Origin: Candidatus Omnitrophota bacterium
GTDB taxonomy: Bacteria > Omnitrophota > Gorgyraeia > Duberdicusellales > 4484-171
Length of the DNA stretch: 64,000 nucleotides
Assembly (NCBI GenBank): GCA_041652815.1
Contig: JBAZGN010000001.1
Span: 573,855 to 637,854 of the forward strand
Reading direction: 5' to 3'
The notes under the pieces are model-generated. The model made no database searches, was not told the origin of the DNA, and saw only the letters and a list, made by a program, of their open reading frames with translations. Within the stretch, counting starts at the first letter, position 1, and the number at the start of each line of letters is the position of its first letter. The position numbers and the translations under genes were made by a program. Positions 1-60,534 of this stretch are shown here, one piece after another.

Positions 1-519
1 GGCCACTGGTGGTTTGAGGGTGTTTCCTGGCTTAACTTTCTTATTCGTAAAATCTGTTATGACCAGAAGACTATAAAGCTTATTACACCCAGCCGCTATC
101 TAAACATTTACCCAAAGAACCAGGTAATAAATCCGGCCCCCTCAAGCTGGGGTTGGAAAGGTTACTATGAGGTTTGGCTAAATGGTTCCAATGACTGGAT
201 ATACCCGCATTTACACCGTGCCCAGGAGAAAATGACTGAAGCCGCTAATCAGCATAGAGCCAAAGGCGATGTAAAAGAAAGAATCCTAAACCAGATGGCA
301 AGGGAGCTTTTGCTTGCGCAAGGAAGCGACTGGGCTTTTATGATGAAAACCGGGGCATTCAGCGAATACGCCAAGAAAAAAACAGTAATCCACCTGGAAA
401 GATTTTATCTGCTTAAAAGCTACCTCGACAAAGGGTTTATTAACTACGAAGTTATAGAAGACATAGAAAGAAAAGATAATATTTTCCCCGAAATCAGCTA
501 CTCGGCATTTCAATCCTAA
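1..519 (+). CDS. GH57-family glycoside hydrolase, C-terminal portion only (5' end lies outside the window); resembles the C-terminal domain of GH57 branching-enzyme-type proteins
   Basis: Frame 1 is open from nt 1 (GHWWFEGVSWLNF...). The listed 232..519 ORF is only the first internal Met. A ...LLAQGSDWAFMMKTG... motif is present. The stop overlaps the next ATG (TAATG). Confidence 0.5.
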   Translation, partial: GHWWFEGVSWLNFLIRKICYDQKTIKLITPSRYLNIYPKNQVINPAPSSWGWKGYYEVWLNGSNDWIYPHLHRAQEKMTEAANQHRAKGDVKERILNQMARELLLAQGSDWAFMMKTGAFSEYAKKKTVIHLERFYLLKSYLDKGFINYEVIEDIERKDNIFPEISYSAFQS

Positions 520-2087
520 TGGCTAAATCAACCACAAAAATTGCGTTTCTCTGGCACATGCACCAGCCTTATTATAAATACCCGGATGCACAAGGCTATT
601 GCCTCCCATGGGTAAGATTTCATGCGGTAAAAGATTATTATGGGATGATACGCACCGTAGCAAAGTTTAGTAAAGTAAAAGTTTCTTTTAACTTTAGCGG
701 AGTATTACTCGAGCAGCTTTCCGATTATGTATACAATAGGGCCAAAGACTATTATCTTACCTTAAGCCTTAAAAACCCCGCTCATCTTAAAAAAGAAGAG
801 AAAGATTTTATAATAAAAAGATTTTTTTCCGTAAACTTAGAAAGAATTGTTAAGCCCAACAGAAGGTACCTGCAGTTATACAATAAGAAGCTTTCGCCAA
901 AAGCAAAATTCAATTTGCAAGATATCACTGATTTGCAATTGCTTTTTAATCTTAGCTGGTTTCATCCCTATACTTTGCGCGAAGACAAAAATTTAAAGAA
1001 ACTATACCTTAAGGGAAAAGGCTATACTCACGCAGACATAGAATATGTAATAAAAAAGCAGTATAAAGTAATGGATGAAATATTTCCGCTTTATAAGAAA
1101 CTTGCCGACAGCGGAAGAATTGAGCTGACATTAACTCCGTTTCATCATCCGATAATGCCTATATTGTGCGATAGCGATGTAGTTAAGGAATTTTCTTATC
1201 TTAAGAAGCCGGTTTCAAGATTTATGCACCCGGAAGACTGTCTTTGGCATCTTGAAAAATCCAAGGAAACATTTAGGAAGGTTTTTGGGCATGTGCCTTG
1301 CGGCAGCTGGCCATCAGAGGGAAGCGTGTCGGAGACGGTTTTGACTTTGTACGGCAAAGAGGGCTTTAGCTGGATAGGCGCGGACGAGGCAATTCTTTTT
1401 AAGAGCTTAACCACTGATTATGTGTCATATGACATGATAAAAAACCAGCGGCATATTATATACAGGCCGTATAAATTCAAAGATATAAATATATTTTTTA
1501 GGGATAGAAATTTTTCCGATATGCTTAGTTTCGTGTACCAGGGCTGGGATGACGCTTCATTTGCCGTAGCTGACCTGCTTGCGCATTTCAAGCGTACTCA
1601 TGATTTTGCTAAAGATATTTTTAAAGAAAGAGTAATAACAATAATTATGGACGGAGAAAATGCTTGGGAATATTACAAAAATAACGGGGTAGATTTTCTG
1701 GAAACCTTGTATTCTGGGCTTGAGAAAAGCGATTGTTTGTCTACAACTACCCCGTCAGAGTTCCTGAAAAAAGAAAGCTCACGAAAATTAGAAAGGCTTA
1801 GCAGCGGTTCCTGGATAAATGGTGATTTTGGCGTATGGATAGGCTCGAAGAAGAATAACTATTATTGGAGTATATTAAGGAAAACACGCGATTTGATAGA
1901 AAAAAGCAAAGTTACCGGGATAAGCCTTGAAGGCTTAAAAAATTATTTTTACCTTATCGAAGGCAGTGATTGGTTCTGGTGGAATACATTTGAAGATTTA
2001 TCAGGAGAATTCAAGAAGATATTTTTTGCCTATGTGGGGAAAATATACAATCTTTTGGGGAAAAAGCCACCAGCACCTTTGAAGTAA
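519..2087 (+). CDS. Glycoside hydrolase family 57 (alpha-amylase / 4-alpha-glucanotransferase type)
   Basis: N-terminal WHMHQPYY motif typical of GH57; 522 aa. Translationally coupled to the upstream GH57 fragment. Confidence 0.75.
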   Translation: MAKSTTKIAFLWHMHQPYYKYPDAQGYCLPWVRFHAVKDYYGMIRTVAKFSKVKVSFNFSGVLLEQLSDYVYNRAKDYYLTLSLKNPAHLKKEEKDFIIKRFFSVNLERIVKPNRRYLQLYNKKLSPKAKFNLQDITDLQLLFNLSWFHPYTLREDKNLKKLYLKGKGYTHADIEYVIKKQYKVMDEIFPLYKKLADSGRIELTLTPFHHPIMPILCDSDVVKEFSYLKKPVSRFMHPEDCLWHLEKSKETFRKVFGHVPCGSWPSEGSVSETVLTLYGKEGFSWIGADEAILFKSLTTDYVSYDMIKNQRHIIYRPYKFKDINIFFRDRNFSDMLSFVYQGWDDASFAVADLLAHFKRTHDFAKDIFKERVITIIMDGENAWEYYKNNGVDFLETLYSGLEKSDCLSTTTPSEFLKKESSRKLERLSSGSWINGDFGVWIGSKKNNYYWSILRKTRDLIEKSKVTGISLEGLKNYFYLIEGSDWFWWNTFEDLSGEFKKIFFAYVGKIYNLLGKKPPAPLK

Positions 2088-2146
2088 AGCTATCAGCTAT
2101 CAGTCATCAGTAACTGACAGCTGAAAGCTGACGGCTGAAAGCTCAA
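2088..2146. repeat. Intergenic palindromic word repeat (GCTGAAAGCTGA / CAGCTGACAG family, 'family B')
   Basis: Contains tcagtaactga and two copies of gctgaaagctga. The same words recur at ~11141-11200, ~15768-15890, ~26164-26232 and ~32986-33025. Confidence 0.6.
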
Positions 2147-2150
2147 TATT

Positions 2151-4193
2151 ATGGGTAAATTGTATTTTGTATTCGGAGTGCATAACCACCAGCCTGTAGG
2201 GAATTTCCCGCATATTTTTAAAGAAGCCTACGAAAAATGTTACTTTCCATTCCTTTCTCTCCTCGAAGATTTTCCCAAGATAAAGTTTTGTATTCATAAT
2301 TCCGGCCCGCTTTACGATTGGATGAAGGAGTACGGTAAGGATTACCTCACGCTTCTTAAGAAGATGGTTAAACGCGGGCAGGTTGAAATTGTAAGCGGAG
2401 GGTATTATGAGCCTATTCTGCCTATAGTTTCAGATTGTGATAAATATGGCCAGATTAATCTGATGAATGATTTCATAGAAAAGGAGTTTTCAAGTAAGCC
2501 TTGCGGCATATGGACCGCAGAGAGAGTTTGGGAGCCTTATCTGGCAAGAGTAATTGGCAATTGCGATTTGAAATATACATTTTTAGACGATACGCATTTT
2601 CGTTTCGCAGGCCTGCGAAAGCCGGAGTTCTTCGGATACTACACAACCGAAGACTGCTCCCAGTCGATATCTGTGTTTCCTATAAGTAAAACTTTAAGAT
2701 ATAAAATACCCTTTTCTGAGGCGCATGAAGCTTTCAGTGTTTTAGACGGCTTAAGGCAAGAAGATGATACGCTGATTACTCTTTTTGATGATGGAGAAAA
2801 ATTCGGGCTTTGGCCCGGCACTTACGATTGGATTTACAATAAAGAATGGCTTAAGAAATTTTTGACTTTTCTTAGCAATTCGGATGATATCGAAACCATA
2901 ACCGCAAAAACGGCTTTTGAAAAATTTAAAACTAACGGGATAGTTTATCTGCCTACAGCCTCTTACGAAGAAATGGGCGAATGGGTGTTAGAACCCAAAA
3001 ATTTCTTTGCCTATGAGGAGCTTCGCGATTTACTTAAAGCAAATGATAAGCTGGAAGAATATAAAGATTTTATAAGAGGGGGGTTCTTTCGCAATTTCTA
3101 TCATAAATACCCGCGGCTTAACTATATGCAGAAAAGAATGCTTTATTTAAGCCAAAAAATAAATACAATGGCAAACCCTAAGGTTGATAAGAAAATATTT
3201 ACCAGCCTTTACAAGGCGCAGACTAATTGCGGTTATTGGCACGGAGTCTTTGGGGGGTTTTACCTCGGGCATATCCGTTCGGCAGTATATGAAAATTTAA
3301 TCGATGCAGAAAATATGCTTGATGAAAAGTATAATAGCGAAAAAATAACAGTGGACTATGCAGACATAGATTTAGACGGCAAGTATGAAATAATGCTTAA
3401 GAATGATAAACTGATTTGTTGTTTTTCGCAAAAAGGCGCGGCTCTTTGTGAAATGAGTTTACGTAATCCCCGGATTAACCTTGTTAATACGATAACGCGC
3501 AGAGAAGAATCATACCATAAAAAGATTCTGCAGAATGTAAAAAAAGAAGGGGCTGTTGCTACGATTCATGACATAGTTAAACAGAAAGACAAGGATTTGG
3601 ACAAGTTCCTTATCTATGACCAATACGAAAGGCTTTCACTTATGGATCACCTTTTGGATAAAGGCATTACCGTAAGCGATTTTAATCTCCAAAAAGGCAT
3701 AAATACTTTAAGTGATGAACTATATGAATGGAAGATTAAGAAAGAAAGCCAAAAAGTAGCCCTTAACTGCAATTTTTCCAATGGTGGCTTGGATTTTTCG
3801 AAAATAATTGAATTCTCGCAAAATTGCGGTTTTGATATAAACTATAAATTTAACAGAAAAAATATCTTGAAGGATTATAATTTTGGTATAGAATTTAATA
3901 TATCATTATTATCGCTGGGAGATGTTTTTGCGAAAATAGGTAAGGAAGAAATAAGCCTATCTGAGCCACGCGAGTTTAAAGAGGTTGGTTCTTTTACAAT
4001 AGTTGATAAGTTTAAAAAGATAATTCTCGAGTTTAATTTCGATAAAGCGCACATCTGCAGCATGCCGGTATATTCGGTTTCTTCTTCAGAGTCCGGTTTT
4101 GAAAAAGTTTATCAGCAAATAGCAATTCTTTTTATTTTCAAAGGCAAGGATACTCTGAAATTTTCTTTGGACATTAAGCACAAACACAATTAA
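2151..4193 (+). CDS. Glycoside hydrolase family 57 (large, 680 aa; amylopullulanase / glucanotransferase-like)
   Basis: VFGVHNHQPVGNF N-terminal GHF57 motif. Third consecutive GH57 gene. Confidence 0.75.
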   Translation: MGKLYFVFGVHNHQPVGNFPHIFKEAYEKCYFPFLSLLEDFPKIKFCIHNSGPLYDWMKEYGKDYLTLLKKMVKRGQVEIVSGGYYEPILPIVSDCDKYGQINLMNDFIEKEFSSKPCGIWTAERVWEPYLARVIGNCDLKYTFLDDTHFRFAGLRKPEFFGYYTTEDCSQSISVFPISKTLRYKIPFSEAHEAFSVLDGLRQEDDTLITLFDDGEKFGLWPGTYDWIYNKEWLKKFLTFLSNSDDIETITAKTAFEKFKTNGIVYLPTASYEEMGEWVLEPKNFFAYEELRDLLKANDKLEEYKDFIRGGFFRNFYHKYPRLNYMQKRMLYLSQKINTMANPKVDKKIFTSLYKAQTNCGYWHGVFGGFYLGHIRSAVYENLIDAENMLDEKYNSEKITVDYADIDLDGKYEIMLKNDKLICCFSQKGAALCEMSLRNPRINLVNTITRREESYHKKILQNVKKEGAVATIHDIVKQKDKDLDKFLIYDQYERLSLMDHLLDKGITVSDFNLQKGINTLSDELYEWKIKKESQKVALNCNFSNGGLDFSKIIEFSQNCGFDINYKFNRKNILKDYNFGIEFNISLLSLGDVFAKIGKEEISLSEPREFKEVGSFTIVDKFKKIILEFNFDKAHICSMPVYSVSSSESGFEKVYQQIAILFIFKGKDTLKFSLDIKHKHN

Positions 4194-6527: not shown

Positions 6528-8405
6528 ATGGATATCAAAGAAGCGAAATTCATTTTAGCGAATACGTTGCCTTTTAATAAATTAAAAGAAGAAGAGATTG
6601 ACGAATTTTTAAGCATTTGCGAATTACGTAAATTGAGCCACGGAGAAATTTTATACAAAGACCAAGATCCCCCTGATTATTTTTATTTTTTATTGCGCGG
6701 AAGAATTGTTATTTTAAAGCAAGATGATATGCAAGAATCAGAAATAGAGCTTATAAAGAGAGGAACATCTTTTGGTATAATTTCTCTTTTTAACGAAGAG
6801 CCGCATTCAGTAACTACAAAATCAATAGAAGAGTCGTTCGTACTTAAAGCAGACAAAGAAAGGTTCAAGGATTTTTTAAATAAATACCCTTTAATTTCTT
6901 TGGAATTTTACAGAATACTTTCACAAAGGATACGTGCGCGTTCCGGAAAGAAAAAAATCTTTCAGTGTAAACGTATAGCCGTTATGGGCGCACATTTAAG
7001 CGGTAAAACCAGCTATATGTTTAACCTGGGAGTTAAATTAAAAGAGCAGACCCGCAAAAACGTAATATGTATTGAATTTAGTTCATCCGATAGTTTCGGC
7101 CTTGATAAACTTACGATTTACAGTAAAATACTTAACCTTGAAGATTATAAAGAAGAAACACTTAAAGATTACATAATAAAAAGTAATTTACAAAATAATA
7201 ATGAAATAGCTATTGATTGTCTTTTAGTAAAGATAAATGATATCCTTGAAATACCTTCTTTGCTTAATTTCCTTTCTGAAAATTATCATTTTATAATTTA
7301 CGAAATGCCGGATCAGTTCTTTGATACTAATGTGCAAAATTGTGTATCCCCGGTTGACTATTTTCATTTTCTTGTTTTACCCAACAAGGAAGGCGCGTTA
7401 AAAGCTGCTTCAGTGATAACAGCTCTCAACGAGGCTGATCCTTTAAGCATTGACAGGGTAAAAGTTATTTTGAGTTATTTTGCCGCGCAAGACCGTCTGC
7501 CGGCGAAAGACATAAAAGAAATTCTGCACGCGAATATCTACGCAACTTTGCCTTCGTTCGGTGAAGAGTACGTAAACGCGGTAAGAAGAATAAGCAAAGA
7601 GGTAGGTGAAGTAGTAATCGGGCTTGCTTTAGGAAGCGGCGGAGCATATGGTTTTGCCCACATAGGAGTATTAAGAGTGCTTGAGGAAAATCATATACCC
7701 ATAGATATTATATGTGGTTCAAGTATAGGCTCTGTCATCGCCAGCCTTTGGGCGCTTGGGAAAACTCCGGATGAAATTGAAAAGTTCATGATTGAATTTG
7801 CAAAGAAGCTAAATCTTTTTTCAGTTCGTGGTTTTTCTTTTCCTTTCAAGGGCTTGTGGCGTGCCAAATACCTGGAAAATATATTAAAAAAAGTCTTCAA
7901 AGATAAAACTTTCTACGATCTCAAACACCCGCTTAAAGTAGTTGTGTTCGATTTTTTAAGAAAAGAAGCGAAAATCTTGGAAGATGGCCCTCTTTATAAA
8001 GCTGTTGCTGCAAGTTGTGCTTTGCCTGGTGTTTTTGAGCCAATAAACTTTAAAAACAGAATGTTGCTTGATGGAGGGGTTTTAAATCCTTTGCCTACTA
8101 AAGTGCTTTTGAATTATGGCGCAGATAAAATAATAGCCGTAAATGTTACGCCTTCCCAGGAAGAAATTATTGAAGAATACGATAAAAAAAATAAATTTCA
8201 TATCCTTGATTTTATATTCGGAAGCATTGAAACAATGCAAAGGCAATTTATCGAACAGGCAGTAACTGTTGCTGATTGCGTCATACATCCAAATTTCGGC
8301 ACTTTACGCTGGCTTGAGTTTGAAAAAGTGCAGGATTTTATAAAGAAAGGCGAATTAGCTACCGTAAACAAACTGGATGAGTTAAAAAAGATGATTAATG
8401 TTTAA
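6528..8405 (+). CDS. Tri-domain protein: N-terminal cyclic-nucleotide-binding (CAP-type) domain + central degenerate MinD/ParA-like P-loop domain + C-terminal patatin-like phospholipase
   Basis: cNMP-binding fold at aa ~20-130. Central domain has IAVMGAHLSGKTS...NLG, a Walker A in a ParA/MinD-like context with the signature Lys replaced by Ala. Patatin motifs GLALGSGGAYGFAHIGVL (Gly-rich), GSSIGS (GxSxG) and LLDGG (DGA/G). Confidence 0.8.
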   Translation: MDIKEAKFILANTLPFNKLKEEEIDEFLSICELRKLSHGEILYKDQDPPDYFYFLLRGRIVILKQDDMQESEIELIKRGTSFGIISLFNEEPHSVTTKSIEESFVLKADKERFKDFLNKYPLISLEFYRILSQRIRARSGKKKIFQCKRIAVMGAHLSGKTSYMFNLGVKLKEQTRKNVICIEFSSSDSFGLDKLTIYSKILNLEDYKEETLKDYIIKSNLQNNNEIAIDCLLVKINDILEIPSLLNFLSENYHFIIYEMPDQFFDTNVQNCVSPVDYFHFLVLPNKEGALKAASVITALNEADPLSIDRVKVILSYFAAQDRLPAKDIKEILHANIYATLPSFGEEYVNAVRRISKEVGEVVIGLALGSGGAYGFAHIGVLRVLEENHIPIDIICGSSIGSVIASLWALGKTPDEIEKFMIEFAKKLNLFSVRGFSFPFKGLWRAKYLENILKKVFKDKTFYDLKHPLKVVVFDFLRKEAKILEDGPLYKAVAASCALPGVFEPINFKNRMLLDGGVLNPLPTKVLLNYGADKIIAVNVTPSQEEIIEEYDKKNKFHILDFIFGSIETMQRQFIEQAVTVADCVIHPNFGTLRWLEFEKVQDFIKKGELATVNKLDELKKMINV

Positions 8406-8614
8406 TCCCTTTTGCCAGAATTCCCTGCCCGCTCGCCCGCCCGCCGTACGGCGGACAGGGCTACGACCGCGGATGAATAGCGGAAAGGGGTGCCGTCCGC
8501 TTTAAGTGGGCGAAAGGAAAATAGCCCATGGCACGCCTGTCTACCAGGCTGAAAGCCTGTTGGACTGCCTTCGGCAGCCAGGCCAGTGCGGGCTCCAGAA
8601 AGGAAAGATTTATA

Positions 8615-9334
8615 ATGAAGAAAAAATTGGGATTGTTCAGCAAATGGTGCAGCTTATTTTTTTTATGTTTTGTTTTAACGTCCGGCTTAGGTTTATGTGA
8701 GGATATCGAGGAAAGATTTGGGCCGGAACACTCATTGTTTTATGAAGTTTTTTTTAACGGTATTCCTACCGGAAAGATAGAATGGAGATATTTAGGAAGA
8801 GAAGTCGTTGACGGCCGCAATGCAGAAGTAATTCTGCTTAATTCCGATACAAATATACTTAAGCTTCTTAACCTAGAAAGCAAAGAAAAAGTATTCATAG
8901 ACTCGAAAACTTATCTTCCGCTTAAAGTAGAAAGGGACGTGGTATTCTTCGGAAAAAAAGAGTTGATAAAAGAAGTATATAATCAGGATACAGGATTAAT
9001 TACTATAACTAAAAGCAATTCCGGCAAGAAAGAAGTATATTTGCGCCAAAAAAAACCCATACACAATATTTTGTCTTTGTTGTATTTTTTCCCGAAAAAT
9101 ATAGATTTGGTAAAAAACAAATTACTTTACTTTAATCTGCCCACGCAAAAAATTACAATAAAGATGTTGTATGAAAAGGATATTGCTTTCGGCAAAGGCA
9201 CAAAAGATATTTATTTTTTATCAGGCAGGGGAGACAAGAAGTTTAATCTTTGGCTTGATAAGAGAGAAAGAATTCCGGTTAAAATGGAATTTATAGTTCC
9301 TTTAGGCAAAATTACAATCGTCAGAAAAAGCTGA
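8615..9334 (+). CDS. Secreted/lipoprotein-like hypothetical protein (possibly DUF3108-like)
   Basis: Internal Met of the listed 8528 ORF followed by the signal-like MKKKLGLFSKWCSLFFLCFVLTSGLGLC. The upstream 29 codons lie in a GC-rich structured leader. Confidence 0.45.
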   Translation: MKKKLGLFSKWCSLFFLCFVLTSGLGLCEDIEERFGPEHSLFYEVFFNGIPTGKIEWRYLGREVVDGRNAEVILLNSDTNILKLLNLESKEKVFIDSKTYLPLKVERDVVFFGKKELIKEVYNQDTGLITITKSNSGKKEVYLRQKKPIHNILSLLYFFPKNIDLVKNKLLYFNLPTQKITIKMLYEKDIAFGKGTKDIYFLSGRGDKKFNLWLDKRERIPVKMEFIVPLGKITIVRKS

Positions 9335-9354: not shown

Positions 9355-10377
9355 TCATTCAATAATAATAAGCGAATTTTTCCCGCCGTATGAATCATCC
9401 TCGCTAAGTTTATTATGCGGGTCGGTAATCCAAGCGCCACCTGCCAGGAATTTATAACGGTATTTACCTTTCTCGAGAGGAATATTTAAAGTCCATATAT
9501 CTTCGCCTATCTTTCTTAATTTATAGCTTTCCTGTTTTTGCCAGTTATTAAAATCACCTATAACGTATACGTTGTCTACCTTTTCTCCTTTCAGGAAAAG
9601 TTGAGTCCAGGCTTTGCCGGAAGTTATATTTAATATTTCTTGCGCCAGTGCCGTAAAATCTTCGGCTCCCCTTGAGTCAGGCATATAATCAAATATATTT
9701 TTGCCGTTGGCAGCGGCTTCTTTAAGATGGACATTTGAACGTACGGCTGTATTTAACAACAAACTGCCGAGTTGTTCCTTAACTCTCTGGATAAAGTTCA
9801 ATGCGAACCGTGAACGTTTATCCAGCTGATTCAAAAGGTAAAAACATATAGGGGTTTTACCTTTAAATTCTTTAAGCATGATAATTATGTCTTTTAGTAT
9901 TTCGACACCGCGAAGGGAAAAATCACAAATACTAAGAGGAATAAGCGAATATTCGCTTGCTTGCAGTGCATTTAGCGTAATCAATCCCAGGTTAGGAGGG
10001 CAATCTAAAATGCAATAGTCGAAATCCGCGGATACAGCTTTAAGAAACAAAGAAAGAATATCCAACCGGTCATCTCTTTGGGAAAATTTATGCTCGAGCG
10101 CAGCAAGCCCTATGCGTGAGCCTATGAAGTAAAAATTTTCAGAAACGGATTGATATAGCGTAGCTTCCGGCAAGCTTTCATTTTTTGCTATTTTTTCTAA
10201 GATATCGGTTATGTTAAAAACGCTTTCTTTTCTAAGGGCAAATGTTGCATGTGCCTGGGGGTCTAAATCTATGAGCAAAGTTTTAAATCCCTTTTTGCTT
10301 AAAGCCGCCGATAGATTAACCGCGCTAATTGTTTTTCCGCAGCCGCCTTTTTGATTGACTACAGAAATTATTTTCAT
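9355..10377 (-). CDS. ParA/MinD-family ATPase fused to a C-terminal CBM48 / AMPK-beta-type glycogen-binding domain
   Basis: Deviant Walker A NQKGGCGKT at the N-terminus with a ParA/Soj-like body. The last ~85 aa (VYVIGDFNNWQ...W.L...G.YRYKF.A.G.W..DP...GG.NS.I) match the AMPK1_CBM/CBM48 consensus. RBS GGGAGG lies 6 nt before the ATG. Confidence 0.8.
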   Translation of the reverse strand: MKIISVVNQKGGCGKTISAVNLSAALSKKGFKTLLIDLDPQAHATFALRKESVFNITDILEKIAKNESLPEATLYQSVSENFYFIGSRIGLAALEHKFSQRDDRLDILSLFLKAVSADFDYCILDCPPNLGLITLNALQASEYSLIPLSICDFSLRGVEILKDIIIMLKEFKGKTPICFYLLNQLDKRSRFALNFIQRVKEQLGSLLLNTAVRSNVHLKEAAANGKNIFDYMPDSRGAEDFTALAQEILNITSGKAWTQLFLKGEKVDNVYVIGDFNNWQKQESYKLRKIGEDIWTLNIPLEKGKYRYKFLAGGAWITDPHNKLSEDDSYGGKNSLIIIE

Positions 10378-10427
10378 TTTAACCTCCCTAATTCTGCCCT
10401 GCCCGCTTTATAAGCGGGGTTGATCCA

Positions 10428-11087
10428 TTAAATTAAAATAAGATCTTTAATCAGTGTCCAATTTATCTTCTCTTTATCCTGAGGATAAAAATAGAGGATA
10501 ATCTGTTTTACCTGGTAGAGGTTCGTATTCTGTAAATTTGAGCCGGTAAAGTTTATCGGCACTTTTATGAAAGAAGGGTCGTTCTGGGTTACTTCAATTA
10601 TAACCGGGTTTAAGGAGTTTGAGAAAAACCTGGTATCTTTCACAACAACCGCTATATTTAATGGCGCATCAGACTTTTTTAAATACAGAGAAAGAGAATT
10701 TGACCGTAAATCTATTGGTTTTTTAAGATTAAAGCTTATTGCAACGCGTTCCTTAGGAATTGTCAGATAGATAAAAGCATTTTCTTTTTTCATCAACCGT
10801 TCGTCCTGGGCTATGCACCTGGTTGATTCAAGCATGTCTTTCGAAAGAAGAGAGATTCCGCTATTAGAGGTATCCGGTATTTGCCGCGCTATGACCATGA
10901 AATCATATTTCATAAAAAAGAATATGCCTGCAGCAAGAATTAGGATGGCGCTCGCTCCAAGTAAAGCAAATCTTTTTTTAGAGGTTTTCTTTTTGCGTTT
11001 CTTTTTGGGAGGAGAAAAAAAGGTGTCCTTTAGCCTCTGAGAGTCTAAATAAGCGTAAGAAAAGAAAGGATTGTCTCGCTTGTCCAC
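10428..11087 (-). CDS. Bitopic membrane protein (basic cytoplasmic N-terminal tail KKKRKKK, one TM, beta-rich C-terminal domain); immediately upstream, same strand, of the ParA-CBM48 gene
   Basis: One hydrophobic segment ALLGASAILILAAGIFFFM. 50-nt gap to the parA-like gene contains a small hairpin. Confidence 0.45.
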   Translation of the reverse strand: MDKRDNPFFSYAYLDSQRLKDTFFSPPKKKRKKKTSKKRFALLGASAILILAAGIFFFMKYDFMVIARQIPDTSNSGISLLSKDMLESTRCIAQDERLMKKENAFIYLTIPKERVAISFNLKKPIDLRSNSLSLYLKKSDAPLNIAVVVKDTRFFSNSLNPVIIEVTQNDPSFIKVPINFTGSNLQNTNLYQVKQIILYFYPQDKEKINWTLIKDLILI

Positions 11088-11140
11088 AAAAATATATTAG
11101 CATTGAATTTTGAAAAATCAACTATATAATTGGTAAAAAG

Positions 11141-11200
11141 CCTTCAGTCGTCAGTCTTCAGCTATCAGCTGGAAGCTGAAGACTGATAGCTGAAAGCTGA
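11141..11200. repeat. Family B palindromic word repeat (cttcagtcgtcagtcttcagc ... gctgaagactgatagctgaaagctga)
   Basis: Nested inverted repeats seen directly. Upstream of the amrS-like gene. Confidence 0.6.
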
Positions 11201-11202
11201 AC

Positions 11203-12210
11203 ATGAAAGAAGCCTTATTCTACACGAAAAATAAAGACAATACCGTTGATTGTTTTCTCTGTAATCATCATTGTCGCATCAACGATGAAGCTTATGGTAT
11301 ATGCAATGTGCGGATAAACAAGAAAGGCACACTGTATTCATTAAGTTACGGTAAAGTTGTCGCAGCCAACATTGACCCAATAGAAAAAAAGCCTTTGTAT
11401 CATTTTCTGCCTGGCTCAAAATCCTATTCCATAGCTTGTGTTGGGTGCAATTTTAAATGCGGGTTCTGCCAAAATTGGCAAATTTCCCAGGCGAAAATCG
11501 CCCAAGAACTCAATTTATTCGAGTATCGATTAAGCCCTCAAGCTATAGTTGAGCAAACCTTGTCTAATAATTGCCCCAGTATTTCTTATACCTACACAGA
11601 GCCTACTATTTATTTTGAGTTTGCTTATGAGGTGGCAAAATTAGCAAAAGAAAAAGGGCTTTTTAATATATTTGTGACCAACGGTTATATGAGCAAAGAA
11701 TCTCTTGAGCATATAAAACCGGTTCTTTCCGCCGCTAACGTTGATTTGAAAGCTTTTAGTGAAGATTTTTACCGCAAAATATGCCAGGCCTCTTTAAAGC
11801 CGGTTTTAGAAAATATAATCTTGATGAAAAAGCTTGGGCTTTGGATAGAAATAACGACTTTAATTATTCCCGGTAAAAATGACGGAAAGATTGAACTTAA
11901 GCAAATAGCTGAATTTATTGCTTCGGTGGATAAAAATATACCATGGCACTTATCGCGTTTCCATCCGGATTTTGAATTTAATAAAATTGCAGTAACCCCT
12001 TCGGAAAGCCTTTTACTCGCTTATGATATCGCAAAAAAGTCTGGGCTTAAATATGTTTATATCGGTAATGCGGATACAGATTATGAAAATACGACTTGTC
12101 CGGCTTGTGGCAAAGTTTTAATTGCGAGAAAAGGTTTTTTTGTTGAAAGTAAAAATATAAAACAAGGCCGATGCGAGTATTGCAAAGAACAGATAGAAGG
12201 CATTTGGTAG
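11203..12210 (+). CDS. amrS: AmmeMemoRadiSam-system radical SAM enzyme (AmrS-like)
   Basis: Y.K..D..V.C.LC.H.C.I N-terminus and a CNFKCGFCQN CxxxCxxC cluster; 335 aa. Confidence 0.7.
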   Translation: MKEALFYTKNKDNTVDCFLCNHHCRINDEAYGICNVRINKKGTLYSLSYGKVVAANIDPIEKKPLYHFLPGSKSYSIACVGCNFKCGFCQNWQISQAKIAQELNLFEYRLSPQAIVEQTLSNNCPSISYTYTEPTIYFEFAYEVAKLAKEKGLFNIFVTNGYMSKESLEHIKPVLSAANVDLKAFSEDFYRKICQASLKPVLENIILMKKLGLWIEITTLIIPGKNDGKIELKQIAEFIASVDKNIPWHLSRFHPDFEFNKIAVTPSESLLLAYDIAKKSGLKYVYIGNADTDYENTTCPACGKVLIARKGFFVESKNIKQGRCEYCKEQIEGIW

Positions 12211-37356: not shown

Positions 37357-37429
37357 GCCGAGGTAGCTCAGTCGGTAGAGCGATGGACTGAAAATCCATG
37401 CGTGGGGAGTTCGATTCTCTCCCTCGGCA
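37357..37429 (+). tRNA. tRNA-Phe (GAA)
   Basis: Cloverleaf with acceptor GCCGAGG/CCTCGGC, anticodon loop CTGAAAA, T-loop GTTCGATTC. Preceded by hairpin agccctgtaaagggct. Confidence 0.85.
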
Positions 37430-56863: not shown

Positions 56864-56936
56864 GCCCAGGTAGCTCAGTTGGTAGAGCAGGGGTTTTGTA
56901 AACCTCAGGTCGAAGGTTCGAGTCCTTTCCTGGGCT
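56864..56936 (+). tRNA. tRNA-Thr (TGT)
   Basis: Acceptor GCCCAGG/CCTGGGC, anticodon loop TTTGTAA, T-loop GGTTCGAGTCC. Flanked on both sides by family A words. Confidence 0.8.
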
Positions 56937-57144
56937 TTAAACACAGATGGTCACAGATTGGAAATCACAGATGAGCACAGATAGATTGTGTATCACGTCG
57001 CACGTAACACGTATCACGCCTTTTTAAATTCTCTGTTTATTCAATGACGTGTTACGTGATACCTGTTACCTGATACTTTCTCAAATCTGTGATCATCTGT
57101 TTTGTAAATCTGTGATTATCTGTGCAAAACGATCTGTGAAAAAC

Positions 57145-57227
57145 GGGCAGGTTCCTGAGCGGTCAAAAGGGACAGACTGTAAATCTGTTGTGCTTGCACT
57201 TCGGAGGTTCAAATCCTCCCCTGCCCA
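57145..57227 (+). tRNA. tRNA-Tyr (GTA), long variable arm
   Basis: Acceptor GGGCAGG/CCTGCCC, anticodon loop CTGTAAA, long variable arm, T-loop GGTTCAAATCC. Confidence 0.8.
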
Positions 57228-57475
57228 TTCTTCTTCGCCTTACACTAATTTAAACCACCGGTAAGGCTTCGAAGGAACAGGTTCTTTTGTTTCGCCGGGC
57301 GAAGAAGAATGCTCCTGCGAAGCCGCACCGAAGTATTATGGTGGCGAATGGCGAAGCAGGGCATATAATTTACTGATGATTTGCTGGCATTGATTAGCCT
57401 GACAAAATTTTAGTTTATAGCAGCGGATATTTGGATGCACCACAAAGAATCTTCGGCTTCGCCGAAGGGCGCATA

Positions 57476-57494
57476 CAAATCCTCCCCTGCCCAT
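57476..57494. repeat. 19-bp direct duplicate of the tRNA-Tyr 3' end (CAAATCCTCCCCTGCCCAT), 247 bp downstream of the gene
   Basis: Exact match to 57210-57228. Intervening segment is rich in GCGAAG/CTTCGC words. Confidence 0.6.
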
Positions 57495-57513
57495 GTCTGA
57501 TAGCTGGAATAAC

Positions 57514-57587
57514 GCGGGCGTAGTTCAATGGCAGAACACTAGCCTTCCAAGCTGGATATGTCGGTTCGATCCCGATCGCCCGCTCCA
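57514..57587 (+). tRNA. tRNA-Gly (TCC), CCA encoded
   Basis: Acceptor GCGGGCG/CGCCCGC, anticodon loop CTTCCAA, T-loop GGTTCGATCCC, 3' TCCA. Followed by a hairpin/IR at ~57588-57660. Confidence 0.85.
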
Positions 57588-60458: not shown

Positions 60459-60534
60459 CGGGGGGTAGCGCAGTCCGGATTAGCGCACTTGCATGGGGTG
60501 CAAGGGGCCGAGAGTTCAAATCTCTCTCCCCCGA
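60459..60534 (+). tRNA. tRNA-Pro (GGG)
   Basis: Acceptor CGGGGGG/TCCCCCG (C1-G72 Pro identity), anticodon loop ATGGGGT, T-loop GTTCAAATC. Confidence 0.8.

Follow-up and report, generated by a model that had tools for sequence, protein, structure and literature searches.

ATPases of the ParA/MinD family are a general bacterial means of placing chromosomes, plasmids, carboxysomes, chemoreceptor arrays, and division sites. To our knowledge, non-DNA cargo is reached in the known cases through a separate adaptor. MinE, McdB, and PomX are comparable partner-peptide activators of these ATPases, and MinD carries a membrane-targeting helix at its extreme C-terminus. Glycogen is the most widespread bacterial carbon store; our literature search found no described system for positioning or inheriting bacterial glycogen granules. 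Here we describe a gene on a 64,000-nucleotide stretch of a Candidatus Omnitrophota genome (contig JBAZGN010000001.1; the whole stretch is referred to as the window) that fuses a ParA/Soj-type ATPase to a carbohydrate-binding module (CBM) of the CBM48 family. Judged from sequence and models, this fusion and its adjacent partner make a widespread candidate for organizing bacterial glycogen granules. The original prediction made from this DNA knew of no described ParA-type system for glycogen, and we likewise found none in the searchable full-text literature, where absence is no proof of absence.

The fusion gene and its parts are located as follows.

9355..10377, minus strand: ParA-CBM48 fusion gene, 340 aa, ATG start, stop codon at 9355-9357 (open reading frame, Pfam, AlphaFold2 model, homologs)
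10383..10388, minus strand: Shine-Dalgarno sequence GGGAGG of the fusion gene, 5 nt ahead of the ATG (sequence)
9622..10377, minus strand: ParA/Soj-type ATPase core, residues 1-252 (match to the 8ray sequence, Foldseek, invariant residues)
10330..10350, minus strand: deviant Walker A motif KGGCGKT, residues 10-16, including the signature lysine K10 (direct reading)
9358..9618, minus strand: CBM48/AMPK-beta-type glycogen-binding module, residues 254-340 (PF16561, alignment to 1z0n, model)

Both domains named in the original prediction were recovered by profile searches. In the N-terminal part, the Pfam families AAA_31 (9.9e-44, residues 1-169) and CbiA (3.3e-18, residues 4-227) match, and the predicted deviant Walker A is the sole KGGxGK[ST] motif within the window. 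For the C-terminal part, PF16561 (AMPK1_CBM) scores 44.8 bits over residues 268-337 of the whole protein and 48.7 bits with the last 91 aa alone, against a gathering score of 26.8. PF02922 (CBM_48) also exceeds its threshold of 22.4, with 23.0 bits for the whole protein and 26.4 for the domain alone. The same 91 aa match the solved CBMs of AMPK beta2 and beta1 (E 5.7e-6 to 2e-5), followed by the CBM48 of plant LSF1 and then the CBM48 modules of GlgB and pullulanase. An NCBIfam T9SS-plug match over residues 217-313 (27.9 bits versus a cut-off of 100) was dismissed as reflecting a shared beta-sandwich. In the AlphaFold2 (AF2) monomer model (predicted local distance difference test, pLDDT, 91; predicted template modeling score, pTM, 0.90) the last ParA helix spans residues 236-252 and the CBM beta-sandwich begins directly after it, at about residue 254, with beta-strands across residues 256-339. 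The CBM therefore sits where MinD has its membrane-targeting helix.

Perhaps the most telling feature of the module is the conservation of its sugar-binding face. By alignment to rat AMPK beta1 (1z0n, in which chain position 23 is residue 90), W100 corresponds to W279, K126 to K309, W133 to W316, and N150 to N334, so that four of the six sugar-contact residues are identical. All four are invariant in an alignment of 34 fusion homologs with 46-81% identity, as are F276, Y306, Y308, F310, D319, P320, N322, G331, and G332. In AMPK, W100, K126, W133, L146, and T148 touch sugar in the crystal, mutants bind glycogen markedly less, and the monovalent affinity of the module is a dissociation constant of 0.3 mM for beta-cyclodextrin (PMC2642990). 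Purifying selection on the sugar-binding face argues that alpha-glucan binding has probably been retained, and is the strongest single argument to that effect.

We identified the same architecture in many other genomes. Among 5.8 billion proteins searched, close homologs at 46-90% identity make up more than 120 clusters. Apart from a few truncated ones, almost all are full-length at about 340 aa; almost all carry PF16561, and every source-named cluster is from Candidatus Omnitrophota/Omnitrophica. A species-representative genome collection was scanned with an alignment of the ParA C-terminal helices and CBM only, which revealed full-length fusions at 18 further loci. Among them are a divergent subfamily from Omnitrophota, whose proteins have a longer linker and reach 360-420 aa, metagenome-assembled genomes (MAGs) labeled Planctomycetia/Planctomycetota, and one Latescibacterota MAG. 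Locus L005, from a Planctomycetia-labeled MAG, has the same gene layout as Omnitrophota locus L006. With the Latescibacterota protein as query, at least 120 more clusters were found (58-100% identity, about 358 aa, all with PF16561), the source-named ones being from Latescibacterota and Krumholzibacteriota. In total, the architecture is common to more than 240 protein clusters from at least three phyla. Because so many clusters of constant length contain both domains, we rule out a chance fusion or an assembly artefact joining two genes, the caveat attached to the original prediction. Source annotations of the family read only "AAA family ATPase" or, from JGI, "chromosome partitioning protein."

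One genome is a complete 4.3-Mb Latescibacterota chromosome (CP070677.1), which encodes two ParA-CBM48 paralogs at about 1.79 Mb (L084) and 0.96 Mb (L085). These proteins are 72% and 70% identical to that of the Latescibacterota locus L016, and their contexts differ. One copy follows an F-type ATP synthase operon and is near a stand-alone CBM48 gene and a GT5 fragment.

The ATPase core is closest to chromosomal ParA/Soj proteins both by sequence (8ray ParA, E 4e-33, then the Soj proteins of H. pylori and T. thermophilus) and by structure. In Foldseek comparisons the AF2 model matches ParA/Soj at E 7e-24, with TM-scores of 0.89-0.92 normalized to the target; McdA ranks below these, followed by MinD, BcsQ, and FlhG. 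Of the PDB chains found by Foldseek, none spans beyond the first ~255 residues of the model (TMq at most 0.68), and for this reason we consider that no solved protein has this architecture. The catalytic residues K10, G11, G12, K15, and T16, together with the Walker A' and Walker B acidic residues D37, D39, and D125, are invariant in the 34 homologs, and likewise D186 and R188. KGGCGKT itself is conserved with one exception, a Gly-to-Ala change at G14, and its family-specific Cys13 is invariant. In the alignment, R188 falls opposite position 182 of T. thermophilus Soj (1wcv); Arg182 of that protein and Arg189 of B. subtilis Soj are involved in non-specific DNA binding (PMC5393062). The fusion does not pass the cut-off of any of four NCBIfam models: the ParA_partition equivalog NF041546 (100.3 bits versus 180), minD_bact TIGR01968 (37.9 versus 212.9), the BcsQ model TIGR03371 (76 versus 157.85), and the eps bacterial tyrosine kinase (BY-kinase) family TIGR01007 (31.4 versus 108.05). 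Where that last family is concerned, the C-terminus of the fusion is a CBM48 and has no tyrosine cluster. The ATPase is a member of the ParA/MinD superfamily, nearest to Soj, and lies outside every curated functional subfamily.

These similarities raise the question of whether the protein is an ordinary chromosomal ParA (Soj) with an accessory CBM48, for which segregation with ParB is the main job and the CBM is either incidental or couples segregation to carbon status. The solved relatives, the invariant arginine implicated in non-specific DNA binding, and the JGI label would all fit this explanation. So would the position of the gene in one Omnitrophota clade, where the order purL-purQ-(partner)-fusion-LOG (lysine-decarboxylase-like)-gidA/mnmG (L012:1-7029, L014:691-4770, L025:1688-9536) places it near a classical origin-region neighbor of parAB. 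However, we rejected these three loci as chromosomal parA loci; no parB follows gidA, and in L012 the next gene encodes a radical SAM enzyme. More broadly, no parB is adjacent at any of the 26 fusion loci, and local phmmer searches and a motif scan of the window identified no ParA paralog, no parAB, and no GERRxRA ParB-box motif. The ParA_partition score falls well below its cut-off, the family has a dedicated conserved partner (see below), and the two Latescibacterota copies lie ~0.8 Mb apart on one chromosome. We therefore regard a role in ordinary chromosome segregation as very improbable. As separate observations, L025 has no upstream partner and instead a 140-aa ORF with multiple transmembrane (TM) segments downstream, and a second P-loop ORF in L020, considered as a possible canonical ParA, is an exopolysaccharide (EPS) tyrosine autokinase and is uninformative on this question.

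The next gene upstream, likewise on the minus strand, encodes a membrane protein.

10428..11087, minus strand: partner gene, 219 aa, bitopic product, GTG start, followed after 50 bp by the fusion gene (open reading frame, homologs, synteny)
11013..11057, minus strand: N-terminal cytoplasmic peptide YAYLDSQRLKDTFFS of the partner, residues 11-25, a proposed ParA-interaction and ATPase-activating helix
10911..11006, minus strand: polybasic run KKKRKKKTSKKR (residues 28-39) and single TM helix (residues ~40-59) (sequence, model)
10431..10856, minus strand: extracytoplasmic beta-jelly-roll of the partner, residues 78-219, with a CBM-like fold

The AF2 model of the partner (pLDDT 79) places one helix at residues 8-24 and the TM helix at 37-60; residues 78-219 form a confidently modeled beta-sandwich, whose fold is similar to those of solved CBMs (galactose-binding-domain-like beta-jelly-rolls). 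Neither Pfam nor NCBIfam has a family for this protein, for its Latescibacterota counterpart, or for the small downstream proteins described below. We found 47 clusters of homologs, none with a Pfam domain, and all source-named ones are from Omnitrophota. For eleven of the 47, the contig has the same length as one that carries a fusion homolog. A local hidden Markov model (HMM) search placed a homolog directly upstream of the fusion in ten loci (L001-L007, L012, L014, and L018). In L001, L002, and L003 it is immediately upstream on the same strand, although the neighbors of L003 are otherwise wholly different. The original prediction had suggested this membrane protein, described as having a poly-Lys/Arg cytoplasmic tail, as a possible partner. 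The Lys/Arg run and the one predicted TM helix are as first described, and the pairing proved to be syntenic and conserved, but the tail is not the conserved feature. Rather, across an alignment of 25 members conservation peaks in the cytoplasmic N-terminus YAYLDSQRLKDTFFSPPKKK, which contains the helix sequence SQRLKDTFFS; D15, R18, F23, F24, and K29 are invariant and Y11, L14, S16, L19, K20, T22, and S25 nearly so. In short form this peptide reads [RHQD]-[LIV]-x-x-x-[FY]-[FLIY], and it recurs in the soluble partners of Latescibacterota.

In the divergent Omnitrophota subfamily the partner HMM matches the upstream gene only in L012 and L014. Even in the other loci this position again encodes a short bitopic protein; its N-terminus carries a helix motif (for example KKEIYEHLARIYLD, DHLVDTYFYQKK, and GQLADVYFAG), and a basic run and a TM helix are also present. 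In Latescibacterota and Krumholzibacteriota the conserved neighbor lies downstream of the fusion and is a soluble protein without a TM segment; it has an unrelated body and begins RHIRDIAHLYIS. To count such genes we searched the first 70 residues of ORFs with the pattern [RHQDE][LIV][KAVER][DRHQNKTES][TIVLSA][FY][FLIY], which was written after the sequences had been seen. It occurs in 28 of the 2737 ORFs from all loci and the window, and 22 of these 28 are genes adjoining a fusion gene; the background among other ORFs is 6/2711, or about 0.2%. A partner marked by the peptide thus adjoins the fusion at 22 of the 26 loci, and at many of them the two genes abut or overlap. Given that a similar peptide is common to three partner families otherwise unrelated in sequence, heading different bodies in different clades, the conserved unit is the ParA-CBM48 protein plus a partner marked by a short N-terminal peptide, with an interchangeable partner body. 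Membrane anchoring is a clade-specific elaboration, since the Latescibacterota partners are soluble. A parallel for such a peptide is known from ParB, whose N-terminal peptide folds into a helix within the ParA dimer interface (PMC5393062).

Additional small proteins are encoded beside some modules. In three of the four loci L084-L087 the RHIRDIAHLYIS partner is followed by a second conserved small protein ("...CRIVPYRELxH...WExRIR.."), which suggests that Latescibacterota and Krumholzibacteriota may have a three-gene module. The partner and second protein are at L084:7978-8907 and 8864-9211, L085:8095-8665, L086:8097-8969 and 8923-9183, and L087:8067-8900 and 8851-9222. Six divergent-Omnitrophota loci have a different small protein gene no more than ~1.5 kb downstream of the fusion (L010:6794-7216, L011:4372-4731, L013:4828-5352, L015:3588-4001, L017:7323-7775, and L020:6490-6867). 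The poly-Lys N-terminal tail of its product resembles histone H1, and about 70 C-terminal residues form a conserved domain (GIxTHYFPxV...IKGHTTDF...GQEIGLLV) with faint similarity to EF-Tu domain 2. Neither the window nor L001-L007 encodes this protein, which may be nucleoid-associated or a third part of the module.

Alpha-glucan genes are also found near the module. As first reported for this DNA, three GH57 genes are present in the window, 5.2-9.3 kb from the fusion.

1..4193, plus strand: three GH57 alpha-glucan enzyme genes, context, outside the operon (Pfam, homology)

The first (1-518) is partial, the C-terminal end of a branching-enzyme-type GH57 that matches a GH57+BE_C protein of L001 (E 3e-98); the second (519-2087) is a GH57, and the third (2151-4193) a GH57 of the 4-alpha-glucanotransferase type. 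NCBIfam provided no equivalog for the GH57 genes, and only weak branching-enzyme matches for the GH57 of L020. We examined the neighbors of the 26 fusion loci within the retrieved flanks and identified alpha-glucan genes (GH57, GT5, glgC, or stand-alone CBM48) at 11, in at least four arrangements. (i) In the window and L001 the three GH57 genes (branching-type, GH57, and 4-alpha-glucanotransferase) are a few kilobases from the module, and L002 retains a remnant. (ii) In L013, L015, L017, and L020, GH57, partner, and fusion form a series on a single strand, separated by short gaps, and L009 also has a GH57 upstream. (iii) In L012, glgC is 3.8 kb from the module. (iv) In L016 the fusion is followed by a stand-alone CBM48 protein, two GT4/GT5 starch-synthase-like proteins, and a GH57+BE_C protein, all co-oriented, and L084 has a remnant resembling this arrangement. 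By our own rough estimate, which assumes a handful of glycogen genes per genome, a random 12-15 kb segment would hold one in only a few per cent of cases. That the linkage recurs in different layouts and phyla therefore argues for a functional link to glycogen metabolism. Omnitrophota MAGs have been reported to encode glycogen synthesis (PMC8542988). Neighbors are unrelated in L003, L085, L086, and L087.

From these features we propose that an ATP-switched ParA dimer binds glycogen via two CBM48 modules, is cycled by the partner peptide, and organizes or partitions granules, a reading that we hold at about an even chance of being right. Its direct basis is the domain identities as read from sequence, the invariant catalytic and sugar-binding residues, the conserved two-gene unit, and the linkage to glycogen genes; granule positioning itself we infer, so that the original interpretation is partly supported and makes a strong candidate. 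With ATP bound, the signature lysine K10 would bring about a sandwich dimer that displays two CBM48 modules. One module alone would hold sugar weakly, but two together would attach avidly to glycogen, whose surface is multivalent; such dimer-dependent avidity is suggested by analogy with the C-terminal helix of MinD and by the sub-millimolar monovalent affinity of the AMPK module. The core might simultaneously bind nucleoid DNA via R188, tethering granules to the nucleoid. The partner helix SQRLKDTFFS may dock on the dimer and stimulate ATP hydrolysis, releasing the ATPase, in the manner of the ParB, ParG, MinE, and McdB peptides. In Omnitrophota, with the activator in the inner membrane and carrying a periplasmic CBM-like domain, turnover would be restricted to the cell periphery. 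The outcome could be ATP-driven organization of glycogen granules by spacing, by partitioning at division, or by anchoring.

Several observations weigh against this proposal. AMPK beta1 L146 and T148 are replaced by Y/F330 and G332 in the fusion. At the position of the second arginine of the Soj PRNxRL motif, which we take to contribute to DNA binding, the family varies (H/S/Y/T/Q), and because of this replacement nucleoid DNA binding by the core is plausible from sequence and not established. The peptide count is partly circular, given how its pattern was written, and 15 of the 26 loci have no alpha-glucan gene in the examined flanks. The pTM of 0.90 suggests a CBM docked on the core and not flexibly tethered. 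Finally, an outer-membrane Alginate_exp (AlgE-like) barrel is encoded beside the module on the same strand at two loci, and a membrane-anchored activator with a periplasmic domain is more than simple positioning of cytoplasmic granules needs. Two rival explanations stay alive because the simple model leaves this anchor and domain unexplained.

The first takes glycogen or maltodextrin as a signal and not a cargo: CBM48 would read the state of the glucan store and allosterically gate dimerization or ATPase activity of the ParA switch, which via the partner would control another process, for instance cell division, DNA transactions, or an event in the membrane or periplasm. A membrane-spanning partner with a periplasmic CBM-like domain suits trans-membrane signaling, and in the AF2 model (pTM 0.90) the CBM follows the last ParA helix without a gap, which suggests that the two are in fixed, perhaps allosteric, contact. 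The same module is regulatory in AMPK, where it inhibits the kinase upon glycogen binding (PMC2642990). A patatin-like gene with a cyclic-nucleotide-binding domain in the window, conserved nearby in L002 and L004, may also be in keeping with sensing. However, no recognizable output domain or downstream effector was identified, the Latescibacterota partners are soluble, and the genes linked to the module in operons are those of glycogen enzymes rather than regulators. Well-studied ParA/MinD proteins, moreover, are spatial organizers. We consider a sensor unlikely.

The second rival is a trans-envelope machine for alpha-glucan or exopolysaccharide, like BcsQ of cellulose secretion or the split CapA/CapB (Wzc-type) pair of activator and P-loop protein, in which the cytoplasmic CBM48 would hold nascent or imported glucan and the periplasmic jelly-roll would bind it outside. 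The CBM-type fold of the outer domain would have a ready explanation here, and the Alginate_exp neighbor could point to a connection with glycans crossing the envelope. Its gene is directly upstream of the module in L010 (3193-4644) and upstream of the GH57, partner, and fusion series in L017 (1597-3093); genes for Wza, Wzz, and a BY-kinase are 2-5 kb away in L020. Similarity to BcsQ in Pfam and NCBIfam is weak, and both the BcsQ and BY-kinase scores are far under their cut-offs, with ParA/Soj closest by sequence and fold. A synthase, a translocon, and a C-terminal tyrosine cluster are all missing, and the Latescibacterota partners lack a TM segment. The linked enzymes (GH57 branching enzyme, 4-alpha-glucanotransferase, GT5 synthase, and GlgC) instead belong to the classical cytoplasmic glycogen pathway. 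An envelope-spanning machine is in our view quite improbable.

Returning to granule organization, its most far-reaching form is a class of ParA/MinD system not recognized before, in which the storage-polysaccharide granule itself would be the ATP-dependent surface, a "MinD for glycogen," with an ATPase that has its own surface-binding module and a cycle driven by a peptide on interchangeable partners. This form we offer tentatively, as possible rather than probable. If granule organization is confirmed, bacteria of at least three phyla have an active means to space, anchor, or partition glycogen granules, with interchangeable partner bodies that are membrane-anchored in Omnitrophota and soluble in Latescibacterota and Krumholzibacteriota. 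The system offers a natural experiment on whether a ParA switch can use a polysaccharide surface in place of DNA or membrane. With hundreds of clusters and the linkage to glycogen enzymes, it can be tested directly with commercial glycogen, a peptide, and a single soluble protein. The module also provides a functional lead for two Pfam-less protein families of poorly understood candidate phyla, and corrects the routine label "chromosome partitioning protein."

Other features of the window were noted around the operon. On the plus strand, a gene at 6528-8405 encodes the 625-aa patatin-like protein, with an N-terminal cyclic-nucleotide-binding domain, a middle region of ~240 aa containing a P-loop-like GAHLSGKTS, and a C-terminal patatin-like phospholipase domain; orthologs adjoin the module in L002 and L004. 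A DUF3108-like gene at 8528-9334 (plus strand), whose product has a signal-peptide-like N-terminus, converges on the fusion gene with 20 bp between the stops and is kept in L001 and L002. The 50-bp spacer between partner and fusion contains a GC-rich hairpin (10397-10414, minus strand; CCCGCTT-ATAA-AGCGGG) without a T-run, which may be an intercistronic stem-loop. Between the partner and a divergent radical-SAM gene at 11203 is an abutting 30+30 nt imperfect palindrome (11139-11200), 80% complementary, with CAGC/TGAAG-type short repeats and no Rfam match. It could be an operator or a hairpin. Over the window Rfam matched tRNAs alone (four clustered at 56864-57584, one at 60459, and one at 37357), none near the operon. 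A promoter and terminator scan gave generic consensus matches only and was not used as evidence.

Compared with known systems, the fusion shares with chromosomal ParA/Soj (type Ib; 1wcv/2bek, 6iub, and 8ray) the fold, the deviant Walker A with its signature lysine, the Walker A' and B aspartates, ~28-35% identity, and the arginine of non-specific DNA binding (R188, equivalent to R182 of T. thermophilus Soj and R189 of B. subtilis Soj). It differs in its C-terminal CBM48, seen in no solved ParA, in the invariant Cys of its P-loop (KGGCGKT versus KGGVGKT), and in having its own partner in place of an adjacent parB. It fails the ParA_partition model and can occur twice on a single chromosome.

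The resemblance to MinD/MinE is one of function. Each has a surface-binding element at the extreme C-terminus, so that stable binding should need the ATP dimer, and in each a partner peptide triggers hydrolysis and release, as proposed for the fusion system. The element of MinD is a short amphipathic membrane helix, whereas that of the fusion is an 87-aa carbohydrate-binding domain. The fusion is also nearer to Soj by sequence and fold, and no minC or minE was found in the window. BcsQ/BcsR likewise ties a ParA/MinD-family ATPase with a small partner to polysaccharide biology, but BcsQ has no carbohydrate-binding domain and lower structural similarity, and no bcs genes were present at any examined locus.

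The CBM matches that of AMPK beta (PF16561, 1z0n) significantly in sequence, keeps the counterparts of W100, K126, W133, and N150, and is predicted to form a beta-sandwich of equal length. Apart from the changes at L146 (Y/F) and T148 (G), it differs in being bacterial and cytoplasmic, and carried on a ParA ATPase and not on a kinase scaffold or a GH13 enzyme.

Like McdA/McdB, PomZ/PomXY, ParC/ParP, and PpfA, the module pairs an orphan ParA-like ATPase with a small, fast-evolving partner whose N-terminal peptide is likely the ATPase activator, and its cargo would be a non-DNA cytoplasmic body. Those ATPases reach their cargo only via an adaptor, whereas the fusion has a cargo-binding module built in, and its Omnitrophota partner is a membrane protein and not a cargo-bound adaptor. 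McdA is also more distant structurally (Foldseek E ~1e-16, versus ~1e-23 for ParA/Soj). Relative to the known forms of ParA/MinD positioning, what would be new here is a storage polysaccharide as cargo or surface, a binding module fused to the ATPase itself, and new partner proteins.

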